Positions 732 through 45,220 of a stretch of 64,000 nucleotides of DNA are shown one piece after another. Numbering within the stretch: the first letter of the stretch is position 1; each line of letters begins with the position of its first letter. The DNA comes from Acinetobacter phage ABPH49: the sequence record MH533020.1; one strand, written 5' to 3'. The notes beneath the pieces are model-generated. The model was given only the letters and a program-made list of their open reading frames with translations. It was not told the origin of the DNA and did not search any database. Both the position numbers and the translations under genes were made by a program.

Positions 732-767
732 TTGACAACCCAGCGCAAGCTGGGTTATTCTGTTGTC
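732..767 (+). terminator. TTGACA followed by ACCCAGC-GCAA-GCTGGGT hairpin and U-rich tail; terminator for the 516-725 gene and/or a promoter-hairpin module
   Basis: 7-bp stem with a GNRA loop followed by TATTCTGTTGTC. An outer inverted repeat TTGACAAC/GTTGTCA encloses it. Confidence 0.45.
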
Positions 768-959
768 AGCAGGAAACGCCACCCCACGGCGAAAAGGCGG
801 GGCTAACGCAGCCGGGCACGGCGCGGAAGGTTAATCGCCGGTAGCTCGTCCAAAATTTCTTTTGTAAAGATTGAGAAAAAGCTTGATCGTGGGTGTGAGT
901 GTGCTATTCTTATCACATGGCACCGGATGACGGGGAAGACAAACACCACCCCTGCCTGT

Positions 960-1015
960 CATTCTGCAAACGAGAATGATTATCATTCAACATCCTAAAT
1001 GAGAACCATTCTCAT
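960..1015. promoter_or_regulatory. Palindrome cluster built on AGAATG/CATTCT half-sites (candidate operator or origin element)
   Basis: CATTCTgcaaacgAGAATG at 960-978, GAATGAT-T-ATCATTC at 974-988, ATGAGAAccaTTCTCAT at 999-1015. Confidence 0.5.
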
Positions 1016-1067
1016 CCCGACCGGGAGAGATCTAGACCGAAAAACTGATTTACAAAAACAGGATACC

Positions 1068-1269
1068 CTAGAAAAATTTTTCGCCCTCCCCTCTTCTGAT
1101 ATAATACGATCGGAAATTTAAAAAATCGATCGAGATCCTAAAAATTTTTCGCCCTGCCCTTCTGTAGATTACGAAACCGAAAATGAAAAACCGATCGAGT
1201 ACCAGAAAATTTTTTCGCCCTCCCCTGCCCGGGGTATTTCGATCTCGATTTTGAAAAACCGATCGAGAA
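1068..1269. repeat. Three tandem direct repeats of about 66 bp (AAAATTTTTCGCCCTCCCC ... AAAAACCGATCGAG)
   Basis: Units at about 1068-1137, 1138-1202 and 1203-1269 share both end motifs with a variable ~20-bp core. The region is non-coding; only a spurious antisense ORF covers it. Confidence 0.75.
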
Positions 1270-1284
1270 CTCAAGTTTTTTTTA

Positions 1285-1500
1285 ATCCCACGAGGTTGGT
1301 AGGAGCGGGCCGATGGAGACCCTTCCGGTGGGTCAAGGTGTTGGGATACGTGGCGAAGTTATCCACACTTGGAGGTAAGTGGGTGGTAAGCTGTAGGTGG
1401 ATGGAGGCCCTGAGTGGGTGATTACCGGCAACCGAGTGGCCGCCGGGATCTCAATTTGAATCTCGATTTGGATTTGATTTTGATTCAGGTTTTATAATAT
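1285..1500 (+). other. G-rich non-coding tract (GGTGG/GGAGG-rich) followed by GATTTG and AAATATC micro-repeats
   Basis: Strongly strand-asymmetric G-rich composition with no ORF; the AAATATC repeats run into the 3' end of the 1512-2291 gene. Confidence 0.35.
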
Positions 1501-1511
1501 CCTGAAAAATA

Positions 1512-2291
1512 TCAAATATCTCCAAATATCTTGTCGAGATTGTACTGGTGGGACGGGTAAATCATCTGGAAAAGATCTCCCTCTTCTTTCGTAGGCTTCG
1601 TCCAGTCAACAAATATCTTCTTCACCTCTGCGATAGGGATCGTTAAATATCCGCTATCACCGGGCAGCTGCATCCCGACCTTACCCTCTGTAAGGTTCAA
1701 CACACATCCATTGCGGTAAACGTAGAAGCCGTGGCCGCACCACACGGCACGAATACCCTGCACTGGGTCCATGATCTGATACTCACCACGCTTCAAGTCA
1801 GGGTACATGGTGCAACGCCTCAGGCCGAGCGACGTAATTACCTCAACAAACAACGGGGCGACTTTATGTGCGGCTATGTGGGAATCAACAGTCATGGCGT
1901 ATGGGAGGTTTCTAGTAAGTTCTTCCCTCATGTGGGTCACCATAATCTTCAGCTGTTCCAGAGACAGCTCGTCAAGGTCTGGTTCCTCATGTAAGCCGCC
2001 TGACGCCTCTAGGGCACATACCACGTCATGGCGGAAGTCATCCATCTTCTCGTAGACTTTGTCGTGGTACTCCATGAAGTCACTGAAGTCGGGGGCCGAA
2101 AGGCTGTTAAGCTCCTTCACCAATGGGTGCACGTCATCAAGATCATCAGCATTATCGAGATTGTTGGCAATCGTGGCAATCTCCGACATCAGGTCATCCG
2201 CACTCGGAGAGGCTGGAGTCTTGCAATTGTAATTGGCATAGTATTCGGTAACACCCAATACGTGATCCATAGTGATATGGTTTAGTGGCAC
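1512..2291 (-). CDS. Hypothetical protein (about 260 aa; GTG start at 2291 after GGAGG, alternative ATG at 2270)
   Basis: Long ORF. The upstream part of the 303-aa track ORF is occupied by the terminator hairpin of the preceding gene. No confident family assignment. Confidence 0.55.
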   Translation of the reverse strand: MPLNHITMDHVLGVTEYYANYNCKTPASPSADDLMSEIATIANNLDNADDLDDVHPLVKELNSLSAPDFSDFMEYHDKVYEKMDDFRHDVVCALEASGGLHEEPDLDELSLEQLKIMVTHMREELTRNLPYAMTVDSHIAAHKVAPLFVEVITSLGLRRCTMYPDLKRGEYQIMDPVQGIRAVWCGHGFYVYRNGCVLNLTEGKVGMQLPGDSGYLTIPIAEVKKIFVDWTKPTKEEGDLFQMIYPSHQYNLDKIFGDI

Positions 2292-2370
2292 AAAACCTCC
2301 TGTACGCCATTCTAAAGACGTTGATTGTTTACTGGTGTGGTTGGATGGGTTGGGGGTTGAAAGTTGAATA

Positions 2371-2394
2371 GCGGCCCGCAGGGGCCGCACAGAA
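2371..2394 (-). terminator. Hairpin GCGGCCCCTGCGGGCCGC downstream of the 2396-2698 gene
   Basis: Perfect 7-bp GC stem immediately after the stop; weak U tract. Confidence 0.45.
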
Positions 2395-2395
2395 G

Positions 2396-2698
2396 CTACA
2401 GCAGGTACGCCACCAACCAGCACCGGGTCTTCATGAACTCAAGGGTCCAATCAACCGCTTCGTTGAACTCCGCGACGTGCTCGGCGCTGGCGCTGATCCG
2501 AAGGATATTGAAGGTATTATCGTCAACATCCAGAGTCACGTGACTGTTGAAGTCCTGACTCTCAAATTCGGCAACCACCAAATCTTCCATCTCAGCGTTG
2601 TCCGACCAAACGTTTTCAGGGTCGGTGCTCTCGAATGCCAGCCGGGCGGTAGAGATTATCGACTTGATCCCGAGATCTTTTCTTTCGTGATGTTTCAT
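2396..2698 (-). CDS. Acidic hypothetical protein (100 aa)
   Basis: ORF with a GGGAGA RBS; Asp/Glu-rich. Confidence 0.55.
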   Translation of the reverse strand: MKHHERKDLGIKSIISTARLAFESTDPENVWSDNAEMEDLVVAEFESQDFNSHVTLDVDDNTFNILRISASAEHVAEFNEAVDWTLEFMKTRCWLVAYLL

Positions 2699-2706
2699 GT
2701 TCTCCC

Positions 2707-2856
2707 CTATCGATGCAGGATGTATGCGAAGTACGCGCTGTTGCGGTTGGCCTTCACGCCATAATACGCCTCATGCCCGTAGCCAAACAGCCAGCCGGTG
2801 ACGATCAGGATGTACTCCCACATCTTCCAGCGTGCTTTGAGTGCCAGCTTTTTCAT
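2707..2856 (-). CDS. Small hydrophobic protein (49 aa, MKKLALKARWKMWEYILIVTGWLFGY...)
   Basis: Not in the ORF track (under 60 aa). Strong GGAGGGG RBS, ATGA overlap with the upstream gene, one predicted TM segment. Confidence 0.45.
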   Translation of the reverse strand: MKKLALKARWKMWEYILIVTGWLFGYGHEAYYGVKANRNSAYFAYILHR

Positions 2857-3017
2857 TTCCCCTCCGGGTGGTTGATTGTCGTCAATGTCTCACCCAGAGT
2901 CCGGGCCAGCTGCTCACGGAGTTGTTGGGTGCCTTGGTATTTCACGGCCGTGTCACGGAGCCTGTTTACAAGCTCCCGAAACACGTGCGGCTTTACGTGG
3001 GTCTTAGTCTCGTTCAT
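2853..3017 (-). CDS. Small hypothetical protein (54 aa, MNETKTHVKPHVFRELVNRL...)
   Basis: Not in the ORF track. Fills the gap between the two neighbouring genes; its stop overlaps the next ATG (ATGA). Weak RBS. Confidence 0.35.
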   Translation of the reverse strand: MNETKTHVKPHVFRELVNRLRDTAVKYQGTQQLREQLARTLGETLTTINHPEGK

Positions 3018-3456
3018 CTTTCTTTGCCGGTGCGATGAAGTAGTTCTGACCCTGTTTCACTTGCACAAAGAAGCCACGGAACCACACGCTACCGTCCAGC
3101 ATGTCTGTATTCATAGCCACATCGTACAGATCGAGGGTTTCACGGGATGGGCGCATGGTGGCCGTCAGAAGAGTGTCGAATGCACTCATTGAAAGCTCGT
3201 ACATGTGGCCGTCTTTGTCTTCCAGATGGATGTTGGCTGCGCTACGCCCACGGCTGTAAGTGTTGTAACGGAGTTCCAGCTTCCGACTGATGTGCTGATC
3301 CACAATCTTGTGCGTCTGCGAAGGCATCCAGTGATATTTGTCCCGATCCTCCTCGATCCGGATGTCGCCTTCCCAGCCAGTATACCACTTGCCGTCTTTT
3401 TCCCCGCCATCGTAAACTACCGCAGGATACTTTCGTTTGTTCAGCTTTTTGTTCAT
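3004..3456 (-). CDS. Hypothetical protein (150 aa)
   Basis: ORF with a GGAGG RBS (ggaggtaaaATG). Confidence 0.65.
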   Translation of the reverse strand: MNKKLNKRKYPAVVYDGGEKDGKWYTGWEGDIRIEEDRDKYHWMPSQTHKIVDQHISRKLELRYNTYSRGRSAANIHLEDKDGHMYELSMSAFDTLLTATMRPSRETLDLYDVAMNTDMLDGSVWFRGFFVQVKQGQNYFIAPAKKDERD

Positions 3457-3545
3457 TTTACCTCCACAGCGTTATCAGTAGGTGGAGTGTACCACACACA
3501 ACCACCAATGCAAGCCCTAATCTGATCATCCAAAATGAGATCAGG

Positions 3546-3964: not shown

Positions 3965-4005
3965 GAAAACCTCCAACATTTAGTAAAGATCCGTTATAAT
4001 TAGGA

Positions 4006-4044
4006 GATCAATAATGACGACCGGTTAGGGAGTTATTATTGATC
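4006..4044. promoter_or_regulatory. 10/11-bp inverted repeat GATCAATAATG ... TATTATTGATC separated by about 17 bp (candidate operator in the leader of the leftward operon)
   Basis: Seen directly in the sequence between the 4153-4533 gene and the small membrane-protein genes. Confidence 0.3.
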
Positions 4045-4533: not shown

Positions 4534-4542
4534 GAACTCTCC

Positions 4543-6309: not shown

Positions 6310-6383
6310 TCTTTCCTCCAAAAGAAAATGGGCCATCTGTTAAGATGACCCATTGTTTCATGTGTTGATTACGAAGTCAACAC

Positions 6384-7661
6384 CTATTTGAATGCACTCG
6401 CCATCGATGCATATCGCGCCATGTACATCGAGACGATATTCGACAGGTCTTTCACTTTTCGCAGCAAGCTGGTGATCAGGTTATCGCCACGCAGTGGGTT
6501 CATGTCCAGAATCGCCTCTTCCTCTTTGGCAACCTGACGCATCAGCTTCATGGAGACAGCAATGATCGAGTCCTTGGCTTCATGGATGTGGTTTTTCATC
6601 ATGAATTTCAGGAAGTTAGCTACACGACTCAGGAACTCGTCGTTGCTGTACTTGTCGATATTCATCACATCTTTCTTCAGCTGGCGCAGGCAGTAATACA
6701 CCAACACGGACACCAGATCGATCTCGTTAGGTGCCAGTTTGTTTTTGTGCTCTGTTACCTTCCCGCTGAGTACGTCCTCGGCGTCTGGAAGCTTCTTAGA
6801 CCGCACGTGGTGGTCCATCAGGGCAGTTACCATGTCTGAACCAACCAGACCTTGAATAGCCACTTCTGCCAACTCACGGTCCAGCTCTCCGGCATCATAA
6901 TCATCGAGAACATTGCCGCAGTCTACCAGTTGGCGAGGTGACGAGAAGCATGGCCCTTCGAAGCCTTGTGTACCAACCAGATGGCCGGTATAGATTTTGT
7001 CCGGGTTTTTCTTGATGAAGGTTACGACGCTCTGGTGCACGTTCTGAGGAACAGCGAAGTCCTCGATCCACACAGTTGCGTTATAATCAACCTCAACAAT
7101 CATCATTCGGTTAACCAACGGACCCAACAGCTCGGTTGTTGCACCGTTGTCGCCCGGGCGGTTACCAGCACCGATAAAGACGGACTTCGGGAAGGTGAAC
7201 TCGCCGATACGGTGATCCAGCATGATCTGGTATGCCGCCTGTTGACACGCCGGGCTGGCGTTTGTCAGCTCGTCAAGGAAGACGAATCCGCGCCAGTTTG
7301 GGTCGGTAGGCCAGAAGCTTGGCGTTGCGTACACGGTTCTGACGATAGTCTTTCCGTTCTCGACAACCTCAACTGGGATCTGCACACCGGCCAAGTCGGC
7401 AGGTTCTTTATCCGACAGGCGGATATCACAGACTGACCCCCACGACGTACCGATGTAATCTGGGAACATCTCCGCCGCGAGTTGGGCAATCTTTTGGGAT
7501 TTACCAAGACCGGCACCGCCGAAGAAGAAGATCGCCTTGCCAGTTTTGGCACAGTGTTTGATCAGGGGTTCCATCTGGCGCATGGTTATGCGACGAGTGA
7601 AGATGTTTTGCTTTTTGTACTGAGCCACAATATTTCCTCTTTCATGTGAATGAGGCCCCAT
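6384..7661 (-). CDS. MoxR/CobS-like AAA+ ATPase
   Basis: Walker A GGAGLGKS, Walker B VFLDELTN, sensor/Arg-finger region AGNRPGDNG. Lies directly upstream of the VWA protein. The start is uncertain: ATG at 7661 with an AAGG RBS, while the track uses a TTG at 7688. Confidence 0.8.
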   Translation of the reverse strand: MGPHSHERGNIVAQYKKQNIFTRRITMRQMEPLIKHCAKTGKAIFFFGGAGLGKSQKIAQLAAEMFPDYIGTSWGSVCDIRLSDKEPADLAGVQIPVEVVENGKTIVRTVYATPSFWPTDPNWRGFVFLDELTNASPACQQAAYQIMLDHRIGEFTFPKSVFIGAGNRPGDNGATTELLGPLVNRMMIVEVDYNATVWIEDFAVPQNVHQSVVTFIKKNPDKIYTGHLVGTQGFEGPCFSSPRQLVDCGNVLDDYDAGELDRELAEVAIQGLVGSDMVTALMDHHVRSKKLPDAEDVLSGKVTEHKNKLAPNEIDLVSVLVYYCLRQLKKDVMNIDKYSNDEFLSRVANFLKFMMKNHIHEAKDSIIAVSMKLMRQVAKEEEAILDMNPLRGDNLITSLLRKVKDLSNIVSMYMARYASMASAFK

Positions 7662-7684
7662 GATAAGGACCTTTTGACAGGATG

Positions 7685-7906
7685 TCAAATTACTTTTTCG
7701 TACCCTTCTGCATAGAGGTCAGTGACAAACCATGCAACCAACTTGACTCCACCTTCAGAGAATGGATCCAGTGCCGACGGGTATGGGGTAGCCATAGTTC
7801 CATCTCGCCTTTCAAACCAATTTGTCAGGGTTTTGTTTGCGAAGTCGAATCGGTAAGTATGTCCCGAGATTGGTTCGCGAAAAGTCAAGGTATCATCTTG
7901 ATTCAT
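7685..7906 (-). CDS. Hypothetical protein (73 aa)
   Basis: ORF with a GGAGA RBS. Confidence 0.5.
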   Translation of the reverse strand: MNQDDTLTFREPISGHTYRFDFANKTLTNWFERRDGTMATPYPSALDPFSEGGVKLVAWFVTDLYAEGYEKVI

Positions 7907-8156: not shown

Positions 8157-8447
8157 TCATGTCCGATTCATCATAGAAGAATCCTTGGTGGCACCCATTT
8201 CCCCGGCAAACATGGGCTTTAGCTTTTTTCGTTGCCGGATGATCCAGAATCCACTGTGACCACCTTTCCCAACCTCCTCGAGGTAACCTTTGGAGATCAG
8301 GCCTTCCGCCACCTTTCCGATTTTAACAGGTAACAGGCAGTCCCCGTCCCAATACTGGGTTTTTCGACGAGGACTGGCCTCTATCTCCCAGCCAAATACA
8401 ACAGCAGCTTGGAGGAAACTTGCCTCGCGTTTGTTAATCTTGCTCAT
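8157..8447 (-). CDS. Hypothetical protein, possible winged-helix fold (96 aa from the ATG at 8447)
   Basis: MSKINKREASFLQAAVVFGW...; 1-nt TGATG overlap with the HD gene stop. Confidence 0.45.
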   Translation of the reverse strand: MSKINKREASFLQAAVVFGWEIEASPRRKTQYWDGDCLLPVKIGKVAEGLISKGYLEEVGKGGHSGFWIIRQRKKLKPMFAGEMGATKDSSMMNRT

Positions 8448-8926
8448 CACTGACCCCCGTGAAGGATTTCGTGCAGCTGGCGGGCAGAGTCCAGACGAAC
8501 CCACATCGCGTGGTATTTACGCATACGCAGCAGATCCTTGTCGGTAATGCCCTTCAGGCGGCGAATGTCGGTATTGTGGCGCAGGTCGGCCAGCTTAACC
8601 AGTGTTGCATTCGGGCTTTGCATCAGGCCATTGAGGTATTCCTCAGGCGTCTGACCTTCCTTCTTGGTCATGCGGTCGACAATGTCCACGACGGACTTGT
8701 CAAATCCGGCCTCGAGGAGGTATTCCAAAGTGACGTTGGTATCTTCCACCAGATCGTGCATTACCGCAGCCGCTTTCACCAACGGGTCCTGCGACTTGAC
8801 GTAGTGCATCACTTTCAAGCAGTGCAGGATGTATGGTTGACCACCCTTGTCAAACTGGCCGTGGTGATGGGTAGCTGCCAGATAGATTGCTTTAGCCAGT
8901 TGTTCTTCTTTGCTCATCAGTTCCAT
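8447..8926 (-). CDS. HD-domain phosphohydrolase (MESH1/SpoT-hydrolase-like, 159 aa)
   Basis: AATHHHGQFDKGGQPYILHCLKV ... MHDLVEDT, an H..HD metal-binding pattern. AGGAG RBS. Confidence 0.8.
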   Translation of the reverse strand: MELMSKEEQLAKAIYLAATHHHGQFDKGGQPYILHCLKVMHYVKSQDPLVKAAAVMHDLVEDTNVTLEYLLEAGFDKSVVDIVDRMTKKEGQTPEEYLNGLMQSPNATLVKLADLRHNTDIRRLKGITDKDLLRMRKYHAMWVRLDSARQLHEILHGGQ

Positions 8927-9944: not shown

Positions 9945-9973
9945 TTGACTTCGGATAATTCGACATGTAATAT
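9945..9973 (+). promoter_or_regulatory. Sigma-70 promoter TTGACT-N17-TAATAT with TG at -14, heading the rightward block
   Basis: Sits at the divergent junction. Shares TTGACTTCGG...TAATAT with the promoter at 42165. Confidence 0.55.
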
Positions 9974-11897: not shown

Positions 11898-11933
11898 TTG
11901 ACAACTGAAGTGGGAAGATGAGATACTCTTCCC
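11898..11933 (+). promoter_or_regulatory. TTGACA + GGGAAGA-loop-TCTTCCC hairpin module (candidate promoter with a stem-loop) upstream of the 11962 gene
   Basis: TTGACA at 11898; possible TGaGATACT extended -10 lies inside the hairpin loop. Confidence 0.35.
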
Positions 11934-11961
11934 AACGCAAACAACAAAGAAGGATAAAATT

Positions 11962-12969
11962 ATGACTCTGCAAACTCAAATCTCTACTATCAAAGATGTA
12001 AACCGCGCTTATGGCTACACCGATTGTGGCTCTCTGGTCCGCAAACTGGGTAACAAGAAGCTGAATGCAGCTGACCGAAACATCGCGTATGACCTGAACT
12101 TTGACGACCTCCTGATGATGGGTTATAAACTCTCTGGCAACGGCACCTGTGACTATACCGGCTTACCTTTCTTCGGTACCGATAACGAAGCCTTCGCCCC
12201 GACCATCGAGCGTATCGACGACTGCAAGGGCTATGTCCGTGGCAATATCGCCATTGTTGGTGCCCGGGCAAACTATCTCAAAGATAAGTTTATCGACAAG
12301 AACCATCAGGACCCTTCCGATCTGGAGCTGAGCAAAGACGACATCAAGATCATCAACGCCATGCTGCCGCGTGTACACGCCAAGGGTTATCTGGAAGCCC
12401 TGAAGGGGAAATACATCCCTAACTTCGCAACCGAAGAAGAACTGGTAAAAATGCTGGACGAGAAGTGGTTCTTACCATCACTCCACCGCATCAACGACCA
12501 GCTGGAAGAGATCGCCAAAGGATCTGCTCCAGAGGATGGTAACATTTCCCTTCAGGGCGTGGGTGCGAAACTGGAAGTTCCTGAGGTGGATACCTCAGAA
12601 GAGGTTGATGCAGCACCTCTGGAGATCGACACCTCAACCCCGGCAGAAGATGAAGCAGAGAAGCCTTCTTTGCCAGATGATGTGGAGATTGCCGCGAGTT
12701 ACGCAAAACTCTGCCGGGCACTGGGTAAAGTGATGACTGTGAATATCACCTTCAGCCAGTACAAGAGTATCTACACCAACAAGCGTTGCCCGTTCACCGG
12801 TGAAGAGTTGACAGAGCGTTACCCTCTGATCCTCGACCGATCGTTGCCTCTGGAGTCTGGCAACGTGAAGATGACCAGCAACCGAGTTGGGCAGGCAATG
12901 AACGAATTTATCGACGCCACAGGCCTGTCTGTTTTCGAACTGGCTAAAAACCTGAAGAAGTTGGCGTAA
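11962..12969 (+). CDS. Hypothetical protein with two degenerate Endonuclease-VII/HNH-like repeats separated by an acidic linker (335 aa)
   Basis: Repeat 1: CDYTGLPFFG...PTIERIDDCKGYVRGNIAIVGARAN. Repeat 2: KRCPFTGEEL...LILDRSLPLESGNVKMTSNRVG. Pattern C..TG...(D/E)R.D...G.VRGN...V.AN, but the catalytic His pair is missing. Confidence 0.6.
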   Translation: MTLQTQISTIKDVNRAYGYTDCGSLVRKLGNKKLNAADRNIAYDLNFDDLLMMGYKLSGNGTCDYTGLPFFGTDNEAFAPTIERIDDCKGYVRGNIAIVGARANYLKDKFIDKNHQDPSDLELSKDDIKIINAMLPRVHAKGYLEALKGKYIPNFATEEELVKMLDEKWFLPSLHRINDQLEEIAKGSAPEDGNISLQGVGAKLEVPEVDTSEEVDAAPLEIDTSTPAEDEAEKPSLPDDVEIAASYAKLCRALGKVMTVNITFSQYKSIYTNKRCPFTGEELTERYPLILDRSLPLESGNVKMTSNRVGQAMNEFIDATGLSVFELAKNLKKLA

Positions 12970-13213: not shown

Positions 13214-13251
13214 TTGACACTGAAACAGGAGCATGTAACAATGCTCCTGTT
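13214..13251 (+). promoter_or_regulatory. Promoter-hairpin module: TTGACA-N17-(TGt)AACAAT with the -10 inside the loop of an 11-bp perfect stem (AACAGGAGCAT/ATGCTCCTGTT)
   Basis: Seen directly; shares the ATGTAAYAATGC core with the module at 34371. Confidence 0.45.
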
Positions 13252-13276: not shown

Positions 13277-13873
13277 ATGGTCACTTTTGAAGAAATGAAC
13301 AATATTATCAGTATCGAGCGTGTTAAAATCGAGGATTGTTCGAAGCCTCTCCGAGTTTTCCGCCTGAAAGTCCGCGAAGATGGTTCTATGGAGCATGAAG
13401 AGCAGGGCTACGCACTGACAGAAGAGTCCCTGAATACCATCCGCCAGTCAGGCTATGATATTGTTCAGGTGGAAGATATCATCGCTGCGGACATGCCTGC
13501 TCGGATATTTTACGATCTGGACCAATTGGCTGCGACAACCGGTGCGGTTGCTTTCCTTGAGGAAGAAGCGCGCCGCCTGCGCCTTGCTTGGGATATTGCG
13601 TCGGCAAAGCGCGTCATGGAAGAGGAAGAGAAAAAAGAGTCCCTTAAAAAGTCGGTGGCTGTTCTCGGCCTTTGTGGGGTAAGTGGCAAACTGATAAGGG
13701 ACATCCTTGCCGAGCGCCACGGGGTCAGCTGCCTGATGGCTCGCCCAAACGATGTTTGGGATTTCCCGCAAGAGATGTTGGCGGACACCCCGCAGGAAAG
13801 CTGGAAACAGACAAAGCTTCGCCGGGGGCCGGGCCACAATAAATTCAGCAAGCGTAAGGGGAAGAAAAAATAA
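13277..13873 (+). CDS. Hypothetical protein with a basic C-terminal tail (198 aa)
   Basis: AAGGAG RBS; C-terminal ...RRGPGHNKFSKRKGKKK. Confidence 0.65.
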   Translation: MVTFEEMNNIISIERVKIEDCSKPLRVFRLKVREDGSMEHEEQGYALTEESLNTIRQSGYDIVQVEDIIAADMPARIFYDLDQLAATTGAVAFLEEEARRLRLAWDIASAKRVMEEEEKKESLKKSVAVLGLCGVSGKLIRDILAERHGVSCLMARPNDVWDFPQEMLADTPQESWKQTKLRRGPGHNKFSKRKGKKK

Positions 13874-16185: not shown

Positions 16186-16402
16186 TGAGCGTCCAACAGT
16201 CATGTACGCAGTATATGACACCGTACTCAACGAGATCCCGCAGATGGGTCACGTACTGACACCAACTCAAAAGGCGGTGTTTGGTATTGAACGAGATGCA
16301 GCATACATTGTTGCGAACTGCAACTTTAAGCATCCCAATCGGTTCCGAGTAGTTCCTGTTGAGATTTTCCATGTTGACAACGTGGAACAACCCATGCAAT
16401 AA
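16175..16402 (+). CDS. Hypothetical protein (75 aa)
   Basis: GGAGG RBS. Confidence 0.55.
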   Translation: MNNNERPTVMYAVYDTVLNEIPQMGHVLTPTQKAVFGIERDAAYIVANCNFKHPNRFRVVPVEIFHVDNVEQPMQ

Positions 16403-16451
16403 TGCTCCACATGAAGACGGCCCACACCGGGCCGTTATTTAGGAGTTTGAA

Positions 16452-16886
16452 ATGCAATTCGATATTGATGATTACCGTGTGACAATCAAAGACAGCAAGT
16501 CTGACACGATTATCGATGCCCTCTTTGGACACCACCCGGGCAATAAGTTTGCGGTGATCTCCCTCCCAGATGAGTTGATGCACCCCGCCATAATCCCTTT
16601 TGTGAAGTTTAAGATAAAAATGATGATTGACTTCACGGAGAGAAAGAGTAAGATGAATTCCACTTCTCGATACATTCCCAACCGGGATCGTCCAACGAAG
16701 TGGGTGGTGCGGAAGTTCAAGTCCGAGTTTGAAAAGGTTCATGGTCACGACATTGAGGTCGCGAAGACAAACTGGGATTACAACAAGGCACCAAAGCATA
16801 ACAACACAGGCCGGTTTGGGGACCTGAAAGCATTCTGCGGGATGCGAAAAGGACAGGAACTTGACCTCGTAGCGAAAGGAGAGTGA
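16452..16886 (+). CDS. Hypothetical protein (144 aa)
   Basis: AGGAG RBS. Confidence 0.6.
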   Translation: MQFDIDDYRVTIKDSKSDTIIDALFGHHPGNKFAVISLPDELMHPAIIPFVKFKIKMMIDFTERKSKMNSTSRYIPNRDRPTKWVVRKFKSEFEKVHGHDIEVAKTNWDYNKAPKHNNTGRFGDLKAFCGMRKGQELDLVAKGE

Positions 16887-25829: not shown

Positions 25830-26277
25830 GGTGTGTAAGAAGTGCGGGGCTGAAAAGCCCCTCACTGACTTTTACCGCCACAGTGGAATGCTTGATGGGT
25901 TCTTAAACCACTGCAAGTCGTGCGTCAAGTCTCGGGTTAAGAATCACCGGGATGAGAACATAATGGAAGTTCGACAAAAAGATCAGGAAAGGGCTGCGAG
26001 AAGGGATATGGTTGCAGCTACCAAATCAGGAAAGAAGTATCGTCAGCGAAACCCAGAGAAATACAGGGCACACACGGCGGTAGGTAATGCAGTTAGGGAT
26101 GGAACCCTTATTAAACCTACCAATTGTGAGAGGTGTGGGTCTGGAGGCAGGATTACCGGACACCACCACTCTTACGCTGAAGAATTCCATCTTGACGTAC
26201 TGTGGTTATGCTATCCTTGCCACTCGGCAGAGCATAAAAGGTTAAACCTTCTGGGGATTGACCCAGACAATGGTTGA
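25798..26277 (+). CDS. HNH homing endonuclease (zinc-ribbon N-terminus + HNH), overlapping the primase-helicase 3' end
   Basis: CKKCGAEKPLTDFY...CKSC zinc ribbon. ERCGSGGRITGHHHSYAEEFHLDVLWLCYPCHSAEH, an HNH motif with CxxC...CxxCH. AGA/AGG-rich codon usage unlike its neighbours. Paralog of the 47840-48283 gene. Confidence 0.75.
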   Translation: MTTTMTPARSKVCKKCGAEKPLTDFYRHSGMLDGFLNHCKSCVKSRVKNHRDENIMEVRQKDQERAARRDMVAATKSGKKYRQRNPEKYRAHTAVGNAVRDGTLIKPTNCERCGSGGRITGHHHSYAEEFHLDVLWLCYPCHSAEHKRLNLLGIDPDNG

Positions 26278-26283
26278 CTTTTC

Positions 26284-26317
26284 CAAAGGGGTGGCGTAAG
26301 CTGCCCCTTAGTTTTAT
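26284..26317 (+). terminator. Hairpin AAGGGG-tggcgtaagctg-CCCCTT + AGTTTTA
   Basis: Seen directly after the HNH gene. Confidence 0.45.
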
Positions 26318-32648: not shown

Positions 32649-32654
32649 ATAAGA

Positions 32655-32684
32655 AAGCCACCTTCGGGTGGCTTTATTTTTATC
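32655..32684 (+). terminator. Strong intrinsic terminator AAGCCACC-TTCG-GGTGGCTT + TATTTTTAT
   Basis: Same hairpin core as the terminator at 30586. Confidence 0.7.
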
Positions 32685-32690
32685 TGGGGG

Positions 32691-32719
32691 TTGACTCCCG
32701 GCTTTGGGGGTGCCATAAT
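32691..32719 (+). promoter_or_regulatory. Sigma-70 promoter TTGACT-N17-CATAAT
   Basis: Seen directly; similar to the promoters at 42165 and 9945. Confidence 0.55.
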
Positions 32720-34370: not shown

Positions 34371-34408
34371 TTGACGGAAGGAAAGGGGTATGTAATAATG
34401 CCCCTATC
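34371..34408 (+). promoter_or_regulatory. Promoter-hairpin module: TTGACG-N17-(TGt)AATAAT with the -10 in the loop of stem AGGGGTAT/ATGCCCCT
   Basis: Shares the ATGTAAYAATGC loop core with the module at 13214. Confidence 0.45.
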
Positions 34409-34428
34409 TTGAAACGAGGAGTCATATT

Positions 34429-34680
34429 ATGGACATGAAGAAGCAAAAAGAAGAGCTGTCTGCAAAAAGAGTTGCCGAGATTGATCGTACCAAGCGTCAA
34501 CGTCTAAGTTTGGAGATGGTAAGGGCGCTCGTCAAGAAGGAATCCAGAAAGGGGGTTCTCTCGATGATTGAGGCAAAAAGGGCGCTCGAAGCGATCGACA
34601 AGTTGGACCACCACACGATGGTTGTTCTGTCACAACAGCAGGAAAATCACCGTATTCGGGAGAAGCGTAATGGAAAATAA
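34429..34680 (+). CDS. Hypothetical basic coiled-coil protein (83 aa)
   Basis: GAGGAG RBS. Confidence 0.55.
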   Translation: MDMKKQKEELSAKRVAEIDRTKRQRLSLEMVRALVKKESRKGVLSMIEAKRALEAIDKLDHHTMVVLSQQQENHRIREKRNGK

Positions 34681-35429: not shown

Positions 35430-35728
35430 ACACACCTGTGGTCACTGCGTTGGTAAAATACGACCTGTTCCCACATTATGTGGTATGTACCGGGACCCTC
35501 CGTAATGACGGCGGTATTCAAATGTCCGGGGCTTCTTACTATCCGGCGGGGAGCGTTCTTCGTATCCTCCCTGAATCCTGTTATCAGGAGGAACGGCGCA
35601 AGCGAGGGGAACTCGAGCGCCGCCACTCGGCAGGGGTTGAGCGTCTTCGCTATGAACTCTTGTCGGAGGCTGGGGTTTTGGAACTCGTAGGACGAGGAGA
35701 GGGGAATGGCGCGGATACGGGTTACTGA
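35426..35728 (+). CDS. Hypothetical protein (100 aa)
   Basis: ATGA overlap; GAAGAGGG RBS. Confidence 0.5.
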   Translation: MNTPVVTALVKYDLFPHYVVCTGTLRNDGGIQMSGASYYPAGSVLRILPESCYQEERRKRGELERRHSAGVERLRYELLSEAGVLELVGRGEGNGADTGY

Positions 35729-35903: not shown

Positions 35904-35932
35904 TTGACAGCAGAAATTCACCGGGTTAATAT
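35904..35932 (+). promoter_or_regulatory. Sigma-70 promoter TTGACA-N17-TAATAT
   Basis: Seen directly upstream of the 667-aa gene. Confidence 0.55.
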
Positions 35933-35964
35933 ACTCGCACATTCACTGAAGAGGAGTTTTAAAG

Positions 35965-37973: not shown

Positions 37974-37998
37974 ACATGGCCCCGGTGCTCGGGGCCTA
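37974..37998 (+). terminator. Hairpin GGCCCCG-gtgct-CGGGGCC + TAAACAA
   Basis: Seen directly after the 667-aa gene. Confidence 0.5.
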
Positions 37999-40043: not shown

Positions 40044-40044
40044 A

Positions 40045-40278
40045 ATGGCACAGAACTTGCACATCAACAACTATCAAGAGCGTGTAACCATGCTGGCGCG
40101 GGAGATCTTTATTGCCGCCGGGGGTAAAATGGTACCATCGGATGCCTTCATCCACGCTAAGCGGTTCATCGAAGAACAGCAGTGGCAAGAAGATAAGGCT
40201 CGTAAGGAGTCAGAAGAGGAGTTGGCACGCACGCTGGCCCGAGCAAACAAACCACACGGGGGTACGTTACGTGGCTAA
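40045..40278 (+). CDS. Hypothetical protein (77 aa)
   Basis: GGAGG RBS 5 nt before the ATG at 40045. Confidence 0.5.
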   Translation: MAQNLHINNYQERVTMLAREIFIAAGGKMVPSDAFIHAKRFIEEQQWQEDKARKESEEELARTLARANKPHGGTLRG

Positions 40279-40285
40279 GAATCAC

Positions 40286-40885
40286 ATGATGTTGGATATT
40301 GAGACTCTCGATCTCAAACCAACGGCTGCGGTATTGAGCATCGCGGCGACATTCTTCGATCCGCTTACCGGCGAGCTGGGTGAAAGCTTTGATAAGCAGA
40401 TCAACCTGAAGTCGTGCACGGACCTCGGCCTGACTGTTGATCCTTCCACAATTATGTGGTGGATGGAGCAGTCGAAGGAGGCTCAGGACGCCTTCAAAGG
40501 TAACAACAAGGCGCAGGCCTTGTCAGAGGTACTCATCAACTTCCACAACTGGGTAACTCTGCATAGAGGCTATCTGTTTTCAGATGGTGAGTCAGACCTC
40601 TGTGTATGGGGAAACGGCAAAGACTTCGATTGCGTAATCATCGAAAATGCCTACCTCGCTGCGGGGATTAAACGCCTGTGCCCTTGGAAATTCTGGGAAA
40701 CAATGGATGTTAGAACCCTTGTCCAGCTCGGGTCAATGGCTGGTGTTCCTGACTTCAAGAAAATGGCACTTGACAACTTCAAAGGTGTCAAGCACAATGC
40801 TCTCGATGACGTGCAGAACCAGATTAAGTACGTTGTCCAGTACACACAGGCGCTGGTAGGCAAAGGTGGTGTTGATGCTCAGTAA
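40286..40885 (+). CDS. DEDDh (DnaQ-like) 3'-5' exonuclease (199 aa)
   Basis: Exo I MMLDIETLD; DGESD (Exo II region); HNALDDV (Exo III with His). Start at the first ATG after the upstream stop. Confidence 0.75.
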   Translation: MMLDIETLDLKPTAAVLSIAATFFDPLTGELGESFDKQINLKSCTDLGLTVDPSTIMWWMEQSKEAQDAFKGNNKAQALSEVLINFHNWVTLHRGYLFSDGESDLCVWGNGKDFDCVIIENAYLAAGIKRLCPWKFWETMDVRTLVQLGSMAGVPDFKKMALDNFKGVKHNALDDVQNQIKYVVQYTQALVGKGGVDAQ

Positions 40886-42124: not shown

Positions 42125-42128
42125 AAAT

Positions 42129-42154
42129 AAACCGCCTTCGGGCGGTTTTTTCGT
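42129..42154 (+). terminator. Intrinsic terminator AACCGCC-TTCG-GGCGGTT + TTTTCG
   Basis: Seen directly. Confidence 0.7.
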
Positions 42155-42164
42155 ATCTGGGGTA

Positions 42165-42193
42165 TTGACTTCGGGTTTTGGAACACTTAATAT
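42165..42193 (+). promoter_or_regulatory. Sigma-70 promoter TTGACT-N17-TAATAT
   Basis: Near-identical to the promoter at 9945 (TTGACTTCGG...TAATAT). Confidence 0.55.
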
Positions 42194-42223
42194 GGGTTCT
42201 CAAACAACAGAGGAGGATAGTAA

Positions 42224-42550
42224 ATGAGCGAGATTACTTTGGAAAACGTAAGCTTGGTAACTGCACCACCTGCAAAGATTCAGGATGCAATCGAACTTCG
42301 TCGCCAGCTGGGTGAGGCGATCAAGAGCTACGGCAAGCCGGTCGCCACAGAACTGACTGACGACGTCCTGTTGCACTTCTCCCGCTGCAACCACAGCGTG
42401 ATCATGGACGACATCGTAAAACGTATGCGTGTCCTGAGCGACCTGAAGAAGGCCCGATCTAACGATACAGACGTCCTCAGCGAAATGCACCAAGGCACTT
42501 TGCTGGCGGTAAAGATCCGCATCGACGAGGAAAAACTCCTAGAGAAATAA
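42224..42550 (+). CDS. Hypothetical protein (108 aa)
   Basis: GAGGAGGA RBS. Confidence 0.6.
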   Translation: MSEITLENVSLVTAPPAKIQDAIELRRQLGEAIKSYGKPVATELTDDVLLHFSRCNHSVIMDDIVKRMRVLSDLKKARSNDTDVLSEMHQGTLLAVKIRIDEEKLLEK

Positions 42551-42553
42551 AGC

Positions 42554-42585
42554 TTGACACCGTCGCCCAGTGCGGTAAACTGGGC
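42554..42585 (+). promoter_or_regulatory. TTGACA + GCCCAGT-gcggtaa-ACTGGGC hairpin module (same family as the 732-767 module)
   Basis: Seen directly; no clear -10 at canonical spacing. Confidence 0.3.
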
Positions 42586-42614
42586 ACTCAATAACTTATA
42601 TGGGAGTAAACAAC

Positions 42615-43295
42615 ATGTTATTTAATCGCAACGAAGTCGTATTTGGTCGCACCATCGAGAAGCCATCTCAGGATGACATCAAGAACACAATGGGCCTGTG
42701 GAACGCATCAGTCGAAGACGCCATCAAGTTTGGTGGGGACGTTACCAGAGCTGCCATTCAGGCCATGAACCTGCGTGGAGACTACAAGCACATTGTTGTC
42801 GATGTCAAAACCCACATGCTGATGCCCAACATGATCCCTGCGATCCCGGGCTGGCACACTGATGGCGTACCGCGCGGTGCAGACCTGAACCCGGCCAGTA
42901 AAGGTGACCCGAACATCTATGCACAGGAAACCATGCGTAGCCCTCGGTATCACCTTCTGGTCACCGGGGGCAACTGCCCAACTCGCTTCATCCGTGACCG
43001 CGATATCGAGATCGGTATCGAGAATGGTCATAACCCTAAGCTCTACTCTGACATCAGCGCTTATGTCAAGCTTCGCGAGGGCCGGGGTTGGTTTGATACC
43101 TACGACGCGCCGGACTCTCAGGTGGTCGAGTGGGATTGGTGGGAATTGCACACCGCACAGCGTGCCCGGGGTCATGGTTGGCGCTATCTGATCCGCGTAA
43201 CAGAGACGGACCACATTGCACCGCAAACGGATCTTCGTCAGGTACTTCGCACACAACAACAAGTCTACATGCCTACGGAGGTGTTCGGGTGGTAA
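42615..43295 (+). CDS. Putative 2OG-Fe(II) oxygenase / cupin-like protein (226 aa)
   Basis: PGWHTDG (HxD) with a distal His in HGWRY, consistent with the HxD...H iron-binding facial triad. Weak, motif-only call. GGGAG RBS before the ATG at 42615. Confidence 0.45.
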   Translation: MLFNRNEVVFGRTIEKPSQDDIKNTMGLWNASVEDAIKFGGDVTRAAIQAMNLRGDYKHIVVDVKTHMLMPNMIPAIPGWHTDGVPRGADLNPASKGDPNIYAQETMRSPRYHLLVTGGNCPTRFIRDRDIEIGIENGHNPKLYSDISAYVKLREGRGWFDTYDAPDSQVVEWDWWELHTAQRARGHGWRYLIRVTETDHIAPQTDLRQVLRTQQQVYMPTEVFGW

Positions 43296-43555
43296 AGGAA
43301 AAGTATGAAATACAAATGTTCGACATAGTCAGGATTATCTGTGTCGACGAACACGGGTTTATGCGGGACGTTGTTAAAACAGGTGTCCCGCTAGATGAAG
43401 ACCTCGTTGTCGTTGAGATTTACCACGACATCCGCTTCGGCTGGCGATATGTGGTAGGTGAAGGGTCTTATCCTTTTGACGTCTACGATGTTGGGGAGCG
43501 GGAGATTTACGAAGTTAATCATCCCCCGGAGGTATTCCATGTCGCAAAATACTAA
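43289..43555 (+). CDS. Hypothetical protein (88 aa; GTG start)
   Basis: GGAGG RBS 7 nt before the GTG at 43289. In-frame part of the track ORF 43130-43555. Confidence 0.4.
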   Translation: MVKEKYEIQMFDIVRIICVDEHGFMRDVVKTGVPLDEDLVVVEIYHDIRFGWRYVVGEGSYPFDVYDVGEREIYEVNHPPEVFHVAKY

Positions 43556-43868
43556 ACTGGAATCTCGGATCTTCATGATCCTTGCTGTTGCCGGAATGGC
43601 TGTGGCGGGAATGCTTTGGGCAGCTAAGGATGAACCGGAGAAGGTTTTTGAACCGCCGATCTTACCGGCTGAGATTTCAAGACTCTCTGAGATCTGTACC
43701 AAAAACGGCGCTTACTCAAGCTACCTGATTATCGAGAAGTCACAACCTCGAAAAGTCATGTGTAAGTTTGAGCGGCGCGTTAAATCGACCGACTCTTTGG
43801 GCGGTCAACACTGGAGTCGTGAGGTCTACACTTACGATGCTAAACAACTTGAGAAGGAGAAAGTATAA
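43539..43868 (+). CDS. N-terminally membrane-anchored protein (109 aa)
   Basis: GGAGG RBS 6 nt before the ATG at 43539; TM helix IFMILAVAGMAVAGMLWAA. Confidence 0.55.
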   Translation: MSQNTKLESRIFMILAVAGMAVAGMLWAAKDEPEKVFEPPILPAEISRLSEICTKNGAYSSYLIIEKSQPRKVMCKFERRVKSTDSLGGQHWSREVYTYDAKQLEKEKV

Positions 43869-44242
43869 TGCTGGAGATCACTGCACTCGTCGTGGTGTTC
43901 CTCGTAATCCTGTTCGCAGCGATTGCGGGTACACCGGCGGTTATCGCCAAGAAGCGTAAGCACCGCCAGTTCCCGGCCATTGTGGCTGTCTGCGTGGTGG
44001 CTTACATCTTCGTAATCTTCAACCTTCAGATCGCGGGCATCTTGTGGCTCGCCGCGCTGATTTGGTCACTGACAACACCGTCCACTGTGATTCAGGGTCC
44101 TAAGGGTGAGCAAGGCCCTCAGGGGTTCATGGGCCAGAAAGGTGATAAGGGTGACCCGGGAAAAGATGCAATCCCGATGTCAAAAGCCGGGAACCTGTAC
44201 ACCAGTCTTCACAACGGGGGCAATGTCAACGTCAATGGCTGA
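43868..44242 (+). CDS. Membrane protein with a collagen-like Gly-X-Y tract (124 aa)
   Basis: Two or three TM helices followed by GPKGEQGPQGFMGQKGDKGDPGKD (seven GXY triplets). AAGGAGAAAG RBS. Confidence 0.6.
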   Translation: MLEITALVVVFLVILFAAIAGTPAVIAKKRKHRQFPAIVAVCVVAYIFVIFNLQIAGILWLAALIWSLTTPSTVIQGPKGEQGPQGFMGQKGDKGDPGKDAIPMSKAGNLYTSLHNGGNVNVNG

Positions 44243-44318
44243 ATTAAAAGAGAAAGGGTCCGTACTGACGTATTACGAACGTGAAGGTTTTTCGAAGCAA
44301 CCGGAGGTAAAGAAATAA

Positions 44319-44498
44319 ATGAGAAAACTGCGTGATTTTAAGTGCCCACAAGGACACGAATTCGAAGCATTGGTTAACGATGACGTGCTGAGCATGTTGT
44401 GTCGTCAGTGTTCGGATCTGGCACACCGTCAGGTATCTGCACCGGCGGGATCTGGTAACGCAGCTCACGGTTTCATGGCTAAAGCGAGGGAGCGTTGA
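44319..44498 (+). CDS. Small zinc-ribbon protein (59 aa, MRKLRDFKCPQGHEF...CRQC)
   Basis: Not in the ORF track. GGAGG upstream; CPxG...CRQC Cys pairs. Confidence 0.45.
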   Translation: MRKLRDFKCPQGHEFEALVNDDVLSMLCRQCSDLAHRQVSAPAGSGNAAHGFMAKARER

Positions 44499-44712
44499 TG
44501 AATGAAGGGCTGAGAGATTTGTTCGAGGAAGCGGTCATGGAGAAAATCAATATCTCCAAAAAGACCCTCGTCGGGATGCGTACCAACTCGGGTACAGAAA
44601 CTCCACCATCTCGGGGATTGACTACAACCTGATGTGGGAGATGTGGCTGAGCGGCCACATGGCTGCTTGGCGAGAGGTTGATGCACTGGTAAAACGTGGG
44701 AAAGGACAATGA
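44498..44712 (+). CDS. Gene split by an apparent -1 frameshift at the CCAAAAAG run at about 44557-44563 (frame-A 44 aa + frame -1 continuation of about 50 aa)
   Basis: The start is coupled to the upstream stop (TGATG). The -1 frame stays open to a TGA that overlaps the next gene's ATG (ATGA). One extra A in the A5 run would give a single 71-aa ORF. Confidence 0.45.
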
Positions 44713-44978
44713 AGAACAGTAAGGTTGCATCATGCCTCCTGTTTGCTCTCTGGGTCCCCGTGGCGCTGTTAATTTGCCTTGCCCGTCTGGTTGTGTGGGT
44801 TTTGGCTAAAGCAGCCTACAGGCTCAACAGAGGAGCTTGGTGGGCGCATGGCAAAGTAGGTAAGCTCGGCAATTCTGTCGGAGAGTGGTTCTACGAATCG
44901 GCATGTTTCGAATGGCTGAGGATTAAGCACGCGGCCAGTCGGAAAAAGGCCCTTGATGAGTGGATGGCTAATGACTGA
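44709..44978 (+). CDS. Membrane protein (89 aa)
   Basis: Hydrophobic N-terminus; ATGA overlap. Confidence 0.55.
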   Translation: MKNSKVASCLLFALWVPVALLICLARLVVWVLAKAAYRLNRGAWWAHGKVGKLGNSVGEWFYESACFEWLRIKHAASRKKALDEWMAND

Positions 44979-45183
44979 ACTGACAAAAAAGCAGGCCTTT
45001 TGGCTGGAGGAGATGAGGGGAAGCTTCATGCAGACTGTCTCCATTTACCACCATAAGCCACGGCCACCGGCGGCACTCATGCGTAAGCTTGAGGCAGCAG
45101 GATACTGCGTTAACGTCATGGACACTTTCTGGAGGTTGACTCCAGAAGGTCTTGAGAAAATAAATCAGGTGTCGCCAAAATAA
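44956..45183 (+). CDS. Hypothetical protein (75 aa)
   Basis: ORF; the start is ambiguous between 44956 and 44971. Confidence 0.5.
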   Translation: MSGWLMTELTKKQAFWLEEMRGSFMQTVSIYHHKPRPPAALMRKLEAAGYCVNVMDTFWRLTPEGLEKINQVSPK

Positions 45184-45186
45184 GTG

Positions 45187-45220
45187 TTGACAGCACCGGC
45201 CAGTCTGGTAAGATGGCCGG
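45187..45220 (+). promoter_or_regulatory. Promoter-hairpin module TTGACA-N16-TAAGAT overlapping hairpin CCGGCCA...TGGCCGG
   Basis: Seen directly. Confidence 0.4.

Follow-up and report, generated by a model that had tools for sequence, protein, structure and literature searches.

What is a hairpin doing on the -10 element of a phage promoter? The question is raised by a 64,000-nt stretch from the sequence record of Acinetobacter phage ABPH49 (MH533020.1; that whole stretch is called the window below), in which a preliminary description had picked out six rightward intergenic sites, at 732, 11898, 13214, 34371, 42554 and 45187, as sharing one layout: a TTGACA-like hexamer closely followed by a perfect stem of at least 6 bp. 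All six sequences are present at these coordinates. The window shares 98.8% identity with Serratia phage vB_SmaM-Kashira (ON287374.1; hereafter Kashira), a Vequintavirinae myovirus of 144.5 kb, and a second phage, ChuuTotoro, about 77% identical to the window, was also used for comparison. Our reading, to which we give a probability of about 0.6, is that the sites are composite cassettes of promoter and stem-loop, in which the hairpin would attenuate the read-through RNA of the upstream gene or protect its 3' end.

Hairpins on the -10 of predicted promoters

Five of the six sites (11898, 13214, 34371, 42554 and 45187) do share one layout, whereas 732 has a different geometry and is described separately below. 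In the five, an upstream stop codon lies 3-6 nt ahead of TTGAC(A/G), and 16-18 nt after this hexamer comes a -10-like hexamer (GATACT, AACAAT, AATAAT, TAAACT and TAAGAT, respectively), which TGn precedes in four of them. Two further members were found beyond the listed six, at 26274 on the plus strand and at 7688 on the minus strand. All seven are predicted to be sigma-70-type promoters of the form TTGACN-N16-18 followed by a -10 that is often TGn-extended, and such a hairpin marks about half of the predicted host-type early promoters. A stem of 7-11 bp is formed between the 3' half of the spacer and the discriminator, so that the -10 lies in the loop or straddles it. The loops, of 4-11 nt, contain the sigma-70 -10, with a consensus -35 upstream; in each -10-in-loop module, no more than about 2 nt separate the end of the core 3' arm from the predicted start site. 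The distance from the -10 to an ATG provided with a Shine-Dalgarno (SD) sequence is tight, at 26-34 nt across cassettes and 29-34 nt in the five listed sites. With such a layout, the sites are very probably real promoters. The members are as follows, with promoter elements as predicted and z denoting the folding z-score described below.

11898-11934 (plus strand): TTGACA-N18-GATACT, TGa-extended; hairpin TGGGAAGA/TCTTCCCA at 11911-11934 with the -10 in its loop; upstream stop codon 4 nt before the -35; ATG at 11962; z -3.57
13214-13251 (plus strand): TTGACA-N17-AACAAT, TGt-extended; 11-bp hairpin at 13224-13251 with loop GTAACA; ATG at 13277; z -5.64
26274-26309 (plus strand): TTGACT-N17-TAAGCT; hairpin at 26286-26309 of 10 pairs (2 of them G.U) with loop GUAA, followed by AGTTTTAT, which is terminator-like; z -3.09
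34371-34405 (plus strand): TTGACG-N17-AATAAT, TGt-extended; hairpin AGGGGTAT/ATGCCCCT at 34384-34405 of 8 pairs including T.G, with loop GTAATA; ATG at 34429; z -4.51
42554-42585 (plus strand): TTGACA-N16-TAAACT; hairpin GCCCAGT/ACTGGGC at 42565-42585, the -10 straddling loop and 3' arm; ATG at 42616; z -2.34
45187-45220 (plus strand): TTGACA-N16-TAAGAT, TGg-extended; hairpin CCGGCCA/TGGCCGG at 45196-45220 with the -10 in its loop; ATG at 45240; z -3.63
7653-7688 (minus strand): TTGACA-N17-TATCAT; hairpin AGGTCCT/GGGGCCT at 7672-7653, the loop being exactly the -10 hexamer; z -2.30

Two details of the preliminary description need amending. Its perfect stem does not extend to 34371, where five G-C/A-T pairs are followed by a T.G wobble and two more pairs, giving eight in RNA. 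Likewise, it had named ATGTAAYAATGC as a conserved loop at 13214 and 34371; the true loop is GTAAYA, and the AT...AT and G/C of that string are paired. At the minus-strand site, the TGA within TTGACA (7683-7688) is the stop codon of the upstream gene, such that gene end and -35 share bases. Every TTGACN contains TGA.

The stems exceed what base composition would give. When folding by ViennaRNA was compared with dinucleotide shuffles, the six original sites had z-scores of -3.5, -3.6, -5.6, -4.5, -2.3 and -3.6 in order of position, and 26274 and 7688 had -3.1 and -2.3; a set of promoters lacking such a hairpin (457, 9945, 32691, 35904 and 42165) ranged from +0.75 to -1.1. In a second, somewhat anticonservative test, 36 nt around the -10 were folded and the flanks alone were shuffled, and 6 of 14 predicted promoters in the window beat at least 99% of the flank shuffles. 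When the window was taken together with the left part of Kashira and with ChuuTotoro, this was the case, at p ≤ 0.01, for 15 of 45 promoters, many of which are orthologous pairs and so not independent. The corresponding background was 4% of 400 -10-like hexamers drawn from anywhere in these genomes, making the excess about eight-fold. Moreover, the centres of the loops cluster at the -10, 16 of 52 falling within -5 to +4 nt. A chance origin was rejected on the strength of the shuffles and the genomic background control. Applied literally, the criterion of the preliminary description gave a modest enrichment (4 of 13 intergenic TTGAC(A/G) sites, against a base rate of 7.5%; p about 0.01); over all 107 TTGAC(A/G) sites, which are mostly intragenic, there was no enrichment (6 hits, p = 0.34).

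Comparison with the two related phages shows that the stems covary. The 13214 and 34371 cassettes have compensatory changes in 5 of 12 pairs among five sequences; 13214 differs from its ChuuTotoro counterpart by two compensatory pair changes, and 34371 shows covariation in both Kashira and ChuuTotoro, its T.G wobble being kept in two of three orthologues and replaced by Watson-Crick T-A in Kashira. The ChuuTotoro version of 7688 reads AGGCCCT-TAATAT-AGGGCCT, with both U.G pairs turned into Watson-Crick pairs, and at 11898 one A-U of the stem has become G.U in that phage. The hairpins of 26274 and 42554 are identical in ChuuTotoro. At 42165, where the window has a weak hairpin, ChuuTotoro has an unrelated 7-bp stem, TTGAGTT/GACTCAA, that again brackets the -10 (p = 0.013). 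No disruptive stem changes were seen across the Kashira/ChuuTotoro comparison. Further afield, the homologue of the 45187 gene in CR3-like contigs is preceded by TTGATT-N17-TATAAT, with GGGGCCAT-gtata-ATGGCCCC around the -10. Since the excess over shuffles is joined by compensatory changes in Kashira and ChuuTotoro, the view that the hairpins are a selected feature is supported.

The hairpin is not a trait of the whole subfamily, an idea that was rejected, as only 2 of 17 annotated promoters of phage rV5 have one. Among IMG/VR relatives, 9 of 78 predicted promoters carried a hairpin (in 28 of the 40 relatives fetched), although the strict TTGAC filter undercounts in such relatives, as the CR3-like orthologue of 45187 illustrates. 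A search for IMG/VR relatives through a 335-aa protein found none.

The RNA in which the hairpin would act

The distribution of the hairpins depends on the preceding gene. Each of the 17 strong hairpins belongs to a promoter whose -35 is preceded, within 20 nt, by the end of a reading frame of 50 or more codons, and the 14 other promoters have none (Fisher p = 5 × 10^-4), as scored by a crude detector that takes such a frame as proxy for a gene and also counts the TGA inside TTGAC. Promoters that start a transcription unit (457 and 9945) have no hairpin, and neither has 32691, which follows a separate canonical terminator. In 23 of 36 cases, picked by a strand-symmetric rule, the sense strand gives a better fold than the antisense strand (versus 13 of the opposite sign; Wilcoxon p = 0.026), and the biggest differences, of 7-10 kcal/mol, all favour sense, by way of G.U pairs. 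In addition, hairpins without a U-tract occur between cistrons that have no promoter (37978 and 46580), which suggests that the function of the hairpin is separable from that of the promoter. The position of the predicted start, the abutting open reading frame (ORF), the sense bias and the promoter-less hairpins together suggest that the hairpin acts in the sense RNA transcribed from the upstream gene.

We propose the following arrangement. A cassette would fill the 50-70 nt between two early genes on the same strand, running from the upstream stop codon through 3-6 nt to the -35 (TTGACN), then through a spacer of 16-18 nt, whose 3' half is the left arm, to a -10 (often TGn-extended) in the loop. 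The G+C-rich discriminator would form the right arm and end at about +1, and a leader of 25-30 nt with its SD sequence would lead to the ATG. Host sigma-70 RNA polymerase would initiate where the right arm ends, leaving the hairpin out of the promoter's own RNA; polymerases arriving from the upstream gene would transcribe the whole of it. In this read-through RNA, the hairpin would serve as an attenuator or leaky terminator, would protect the 3' end of the upstream message, or both, and collision with a polymerase at the embedded promoter may help its effect. It would lie on the -10 because a promoter pressed up against an ORF has sequence free to vary only in its spacer and discriminator. On a larger scale, the cassettes would be conserved islands between variable ORFs, coinciding with the ORF-swap junctions of related phages.

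Several points weigh against this proposal. Promoter activity, start site and effect on RNA, and likewise timing and 3' ends, are predictions from sequence. The orthologous pairs reduce the number of independent promoters behind the enrichment, and the upstream-ORF detector is as crude as stated. The sense-antisense asymmetry is modest, the total of G.U pairs being 32 versus 26. Six of the seven -10-in-loop hairpins, all except 26274, show 0-3 T among the first 8 nt past the core stem, compared with 4-7 T after the stems of the phage's canonical terminators (26274 has 5 T, and 732 a T-rich tail). Finally, the promoter at 42165 keeps its weak hairpin around the -10 despite a strong terminator just upstream, which compaction alone does not explain. 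With so few T after their stems, the hairpins are not classical intrinsic terminators, and what would be expected of them is attenuation or leaky termination, 3'-end protection, or both. As its own refutation, the preliminary description had foreseen that the hairpins might act only as terminators of the upstream genes; the evidence comes closest to a service to the upstream transcript, yet the promoter would still be real. Its suggestion of middle promoters is not supported, since an unmodified host consensus would make them early-type.

The position of the repeat on the -10 invites explanations at the level of DNA, in which it would, together with the G+C-rich discriminator, tune the promoter and time early shut-off; supercoil-dependent extrusion or melting is a candidate, as are short-lived open complexes sensitive to (p)ppGpp from a predicted phage GTP pyrophosphokinase. 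The loop is exactly the -10 at several sites, the right arm is the discriminator, and Horwitz and Loeb (1988) reportedly described a promoter repressed through cruciform extrusion at its -10; however, arms of 7-11 bp with loops of 4-11 nt are unfavourable for extrusion, and a cruciform would turn the conserved G.T wobbles of the sense strand into mismatches in each of its arms. A GTP pyrophosphokinase is indeed annotated in Kashira (window 8447-8926), and 42165 and its ChuuTotoro orthologue retain a hairpin despite their separate upstream terminator. Nevertheless, the strong hairpins occur only with an abutting upstream ORF, and rV5 promoters are mostly without one (2 of 17). We regard control of this kind as quite unlikely; occlusion of the -10 by a cruciform, as first suggested, conflicts with the lengths of arms and loops, with the sense-only G.T wobbles and with sense folds that are more stable than antisense ones. 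We are just as sceptical of a coupling device, in which early promoter and upstream read-through control one another or the discriminator arm confers alarmone sensitivity. In one variant, termination without a U-tract could depend on a polymerase at the embedded promoter; in the other, the G+C-rich discriminator arm could sense the product of the phage's own predicted GTP pyrophosphokinase. If true, either mechanism would constitute a built-in timer for the shut-off of early genes in this phage clade.

An unlikely alternative is that the cassettes are selected mainly as recombination joints for gain, loss and swapping of ORFs, as for the stem-loop cassettes of T4-like phages discussed at the end, with a hairpin that is incidental or helps recombination. 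Relative to Kashira, the ORF between promoter 457 and site 732 has been replaced, homology stopping at 506, just past the SD sequence, and resuming exactly at 732; homology to both Kashira and ChuuTotoro also stops at 34421, the 3' edge of module 34371, beyond which the genes differ. These two are the clean cases of ORF replacement at a cassette in the Kashira comparison, and most other breakpoints with that phage (3739, 14659, 30778, 44277, 47871 and 55131) lie away from cassettes. Blocks of homology between window and ChuuTotoro start or end at 451, 13203, 26269, 34421 and 35893, and the cassette found in ChuuTotoro at the position of 13214 looks like the window's 34371 cassette; even so, gene boundaries are where breakpoints are expected anyway, and the cassettes, which have no more than TTGAC, two -10 positions and the SD sequence in common (mean column identity 54%), offer little homology. 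The association of cassettes with ORF swaps is suggestive. Palindromic operators for a phage or host regulator overlapping the -10 would account for inverted repeats centred there, but are very improbable: the arms are wholly different between sites (GGGAAGA, CAGGAGCAT, GGGGTAT, GCCCAGT and CCGGCCA), change by compensation between orthologues, and are spaced from 4 to 11 nt apart. The binding sites for a protein offered earlier are not supported, if one protein is meant, because the arms lack a common half-site, and a single sequence-specific regulator was rejected since the arms are unrelated. An equally poor prospect is a 5' stabilising or processing hairpin of the downstream transcript, for which the stems lie suitably 25-35 nt upstream of start codons; the start would have to lie further upstream and TTGACA could not be a -35, yet consensus -35 and -10 elements at 16-18 nt spacing put the start at the end of the 3' arm, and the 3-6 nt between upstream stop codon and TTGAC hold no alternative promoter. 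This role had also been suggested initially, and is disfavoured because the core 3' arm stops so close to the predicted start (about 2 nt at most) that the promoter's own transcript would lack the hairpin. We favour the composite cassette acting on upstream RNA.

Some established classes of element were also considered and rejected. RNase III sites need roughly 20 bp, and the stems here are far too short. Hairpin promoters of the N4 type have a 5-7 bp stem, a 3-nt loop and conserved flanking bases; promoters for an N4-type virion RNA polymerase, or single-stranded-DNA promoters, do not match the geometry here, with loops of 4-11 nt containing a sigma-70 -10 and a consensus -35 upstream. No known RNA family in Rfam matched at gathering score in the whole window, and the matches around 732 were only at chance level.

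Site 732 and other features of the window

Site 732 differs from the others in that its hairpin fills the spacer.

732-774 (plus strand): TTGACA; hairpin at 737-756 (AACCCAGC-GCAA-GCTGGGTT) filling the spacer; -10-like TATTCT/T-rich tail; second hairpin at 757-774; z -3.52

It follows a plus-strand ORF at 483-725 and has no plus-strand gene downstream. Its first hairpin covaries over three phages, one pair being A-U, G.U or G-C and another changing from C-G to A-U, and the second hairpin has a pair that is G-C, G.U or A-U. A consensus fold of the three sequences, with three covarying pairs, spans 734-851 and includes a conserved G+C-rich block with a covariation-supported fold at 765-850. The site stands at the start of a stretch of about 800 nt without a credible ORF (726-1511). 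Judged by eye from the alignment, 716-1010 is about 90% identical to ChuuTotoro, and the blastn block 451-1270 has 82% identity to that phage, compared with 72-77% for most coding blocks. Three direct repeats of about 66 nt (AGAAAAATTTTTCGCCCTCCCCT ... GAAAAACCGATCGAGA) lie at 1070-1290. Site 732 is best read as a terminator or structured 3' region of the small plus-strand ORF 483-725, and it may serve as a promoter for a non-coding RNA as well; the stretch 726-1511 could be a replication origin with iterons, a source of non-coding RNA, or both. The genome paper of rV5 also marks a 'non-coding' box.

The window has canonical promoters alternating with UUCG-loop terminators, as the preliminary description had noted. 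Predicted promoters without a strong hairpin on the -10, and hairpins without a promoter, are the following.

457-484 (plus strand): TTGACT-N16-TATAAT without hairpin; no same-strand transcription upstream; z +0.75
9945-9973 (plus strand): TTGACT-N17-TAATAT, the first rightward promoter, at the divergent junction; without hairpin; z +0.71
32654-32719 (plus strand): terminator with UUCG loop and T-run (32654-32685), then promoter TTGACT-N17-CATAAT (32691-32719); promoter z -0.05
35904-35937 (plus strand): TTGACA-N17-TAATAT with a weak 5-bp hairpin, CGGGT-TAATAT-ACTCG; z -0.78, not significant
42165-42205 (plus strand): TTGACT-N17-TAATAT behind a canonical terminator (42129-42148); weak bulged hairpin around the -10; z -1.08
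6327-6380 (minus strand): TTGACT-N17-AACAAT whose -10 overlaps the 5' arm of a canonical terminator (12-bp stem and T-run)
37978-37996 (plus strand): intercistronic hairpin with no U-tract and no recognisable promoter
46580-46597 (plus strand): intercistronic hairpin GGGTGGC-TTAG-GCCACCC with no U-tract and no promoter

A TTGCAT-N17-TATACT site after the 30588 terminator has no hairpin or only a weak one, like 32691 and 42165. In CR3-like phages, the homologue of the gene upstream of 37978 is directly followed by a promoter of the form TTGACA-GGGGCC-GNRA-GGCCCC-ATAAT.

A further promoter-like arrangement was seen at 16374-16451, where TTGACA-N18-AATAAT lies within the end of the upstream ORF and has a -10 region, ATGYAAYAATGCYCC, common to 13214 and 34371. 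It would fire into a terminator-like hairpin at about 16416-16438 with a T-run, ahead of the SD sequence of the gene at 16452. The arrangement is kept in the ChuuTotoro orthologue, whose T-run is fully canonical. The site may be an attenuated promoter, or no promoter at all. Just outside the window, Kashira 105092-114291 (minus strand) holds leftward tiny early ORFs with a promoter family of their own, also found in ChuuTotoro, that has the conserved leader ACTTATCAAGCGGCGGGAATGG. Two -10-in-loop hairpins in this region are very strong: one, TTGACT-cttcccggtgccgccc-TATAAT-aggtggcatcagggg, reaches -21.1 kcal/mol when 36 nt around the -10 are folded and -28 kcal/mol over the 50-nt promoter segment, and the other reads TTGACG...gccgtcgtg-TAGAAT-ggcggc.

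Genes in the window run leftward over 1-9.9 kb, rightward over 10-48.3 kb, which contains replication genes and many small hypothetical genes, and leftward again over 48.3-64 kb, which contains tail and baseplate genes. The Kashira gene corresponding to 8447-8926 (minus strand) is annotated as GTP pyrophosphokinase, and that corresponding to about 40112-40885 (plus strand) as an RNase T-like 3' exoribonuclease; it is speculative that these enzymes could act on G+C-rich discriminators or 3' hairpins. An insertion of about 400 bp with a small ORF, at 47872-48278, is missing from Kashira. The start of its ORF resembles a second copy at 25830-26086 (GGTGTGT..AAGTG.GGGG...AAAGCCCCTCACTGA.TT.TAC), and the two may be paralogous small homing-endonuclease-like genes. 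Finally, the motif TGRTAAAATR occurs four times in the window, versus 0.41 expected, and fits the late-promoter-like motif TggTAaAAtA reported for rV5.

55043-55052 (minus strand): TGRTAAAATR, just past a terminator and upstream of structural genes
62847-62856 (minus strand): TGRTAAAATR, likewise past a terminator and upstream of structural genes
35451-35460 (plus strand): TGRTAAAATR
46299-46308 (plus strand): TGRTAAAATR

Comparison with known systems

REP elements are intercistronic hairpins that protect 3' ends. The hairpins here resemble them in lying between cistrons without a U-tract, as the promoter-less ones at 37978 and 46580 do, but they have no repeated consensus, and the cassette hairpins are embedded in a promoter. 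The likeness to intrinsic terminators lies in the G+C-rich stem directly after a gene, followed at 26274 and 732 by a T-rich tail; in contrast, 11898, 13214, 34371, 42554, 45187 and 7688 lack the U-tract, having 0-3 T. Closer to the present arrangement are the promoter-coupled terminators of bacteria, in which a terminator hairpin and the promoter of the next tandem gene share DNA and intergenic regions are shorter (Fletcher et al. 2026, bioRxiv 10.64898/2026.08.19.745784). There, the coupled promoter raises the efficiency of a weak overlapping terminator, probably via polymerase collision, and the stem covers -35 and spacer, with a T-tract before the -10 and the RNA 3' end about 10 bp upstream of the start (bioRxiv 10.64898/2026.08.19.745784); membership of the class calls for a mapped 3' end no further than 35 bp upstream of a mapped start. 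Site 732, in part, and the spacer hairpins of CR3-like phages share this design, with the stem in the spacer and the -10 right after it; the -10-in-loop sites, however, enclose the -10 and end at +1, with a T-rich tail only at 26274. By analogy, promoter-enhanced weak termination could apply to these cassettes.

The nearest relatives are the PeSLs, the promoter-early stem-loop cassettes of the T4-like phages RB49/phi1, PST/T4 and nt-1/KVP40 (Arbiol et al. 2010, PMC2839356; Comeau et al. 2014, PMC4122927). Their layout comprises an upstream stop codon, an AT-rich stretch, sigma-70-like -35 and -10 elements, a stem-loop, and SD sequence and ATG; the stem-loop mostly occupies the -35/-10 interval or overlaps the -10, some stems include G-T pairs, and one stem-loop lowered read-through into lacZ to an extent similar to rrnB T1 (PMC2839356). 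Promoter and terminator/attenuator activity and the formation of mini-circles also belong to the PeSL profile. The cassettes of the window likewise have a predicted sigma-70-like early promoter (TTGACN-N16-18 and a -10 with A2 and T6, often with TGn) and a stable stem-loop within it (z -2.3 to -5.6, loop centres peaking on the -10). They also span the whole intergenic space from stop codon to SD sequence and ATG, with a short AT-rich stretch, and lie among small ORFs of undescribed function; two of them (732 and 34371) are at junctions where ORFs have been replaced relative to Kashira. The two differ in host genome, here a Vequintavirinae myovirus rather than a T4-like phage, with cassettes predicted from sequence, and in mutual similarity. 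PeSLs are a repeated, mutually similar motif of about 70-100 bp that supports homologous recombination. In 12 aligned cassettes here, TTGAC alone is invariant, two -10 positions and the SD sequence are shared, and mean column identity is 54%; only 13214 and 34371 resemble each other, and there is no Gn-loop-Cn consensus.

Reports of PeSLs are confined to T4-like phages (PMC4122927), and our literature search yielded nothing on hairpins at Vequintavirinae promoters. For rV5, the genome paper gives 33 promoters and 20 terminators; a search of it by term for stem-loops turned up no mention of an overlap between the two. Several small early ORFs of rV5 (NC_011041, 88001-137947) are annotated as similar to hypothetical proteins of RB49, the phage in which PeSLs were discovered; this hints at an exchange of early-gene cassettes between the two phage groups.

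If our reading is right, these sites extend composite promoter/stem-loop cassettes from T4-like phages to a Serratia Vequintavirinae clade, one orthologous site pointing on to CR3-like relatives. Here covariation speaks for selection on the stem, and the stem is present only where the promoter is pressed against the preceding gene. For annotation, this means that terminator finders will miss such elements and that a promoter call and a "terminator" call on the same DNA may both be legitimate. Moreover, with hairpin and hairpin-less promoters side by side in one genome, the phage offers a natural test set for the effect of U-tract-less promoter hairpins on read-through, a question that it shares with the PeSLs.

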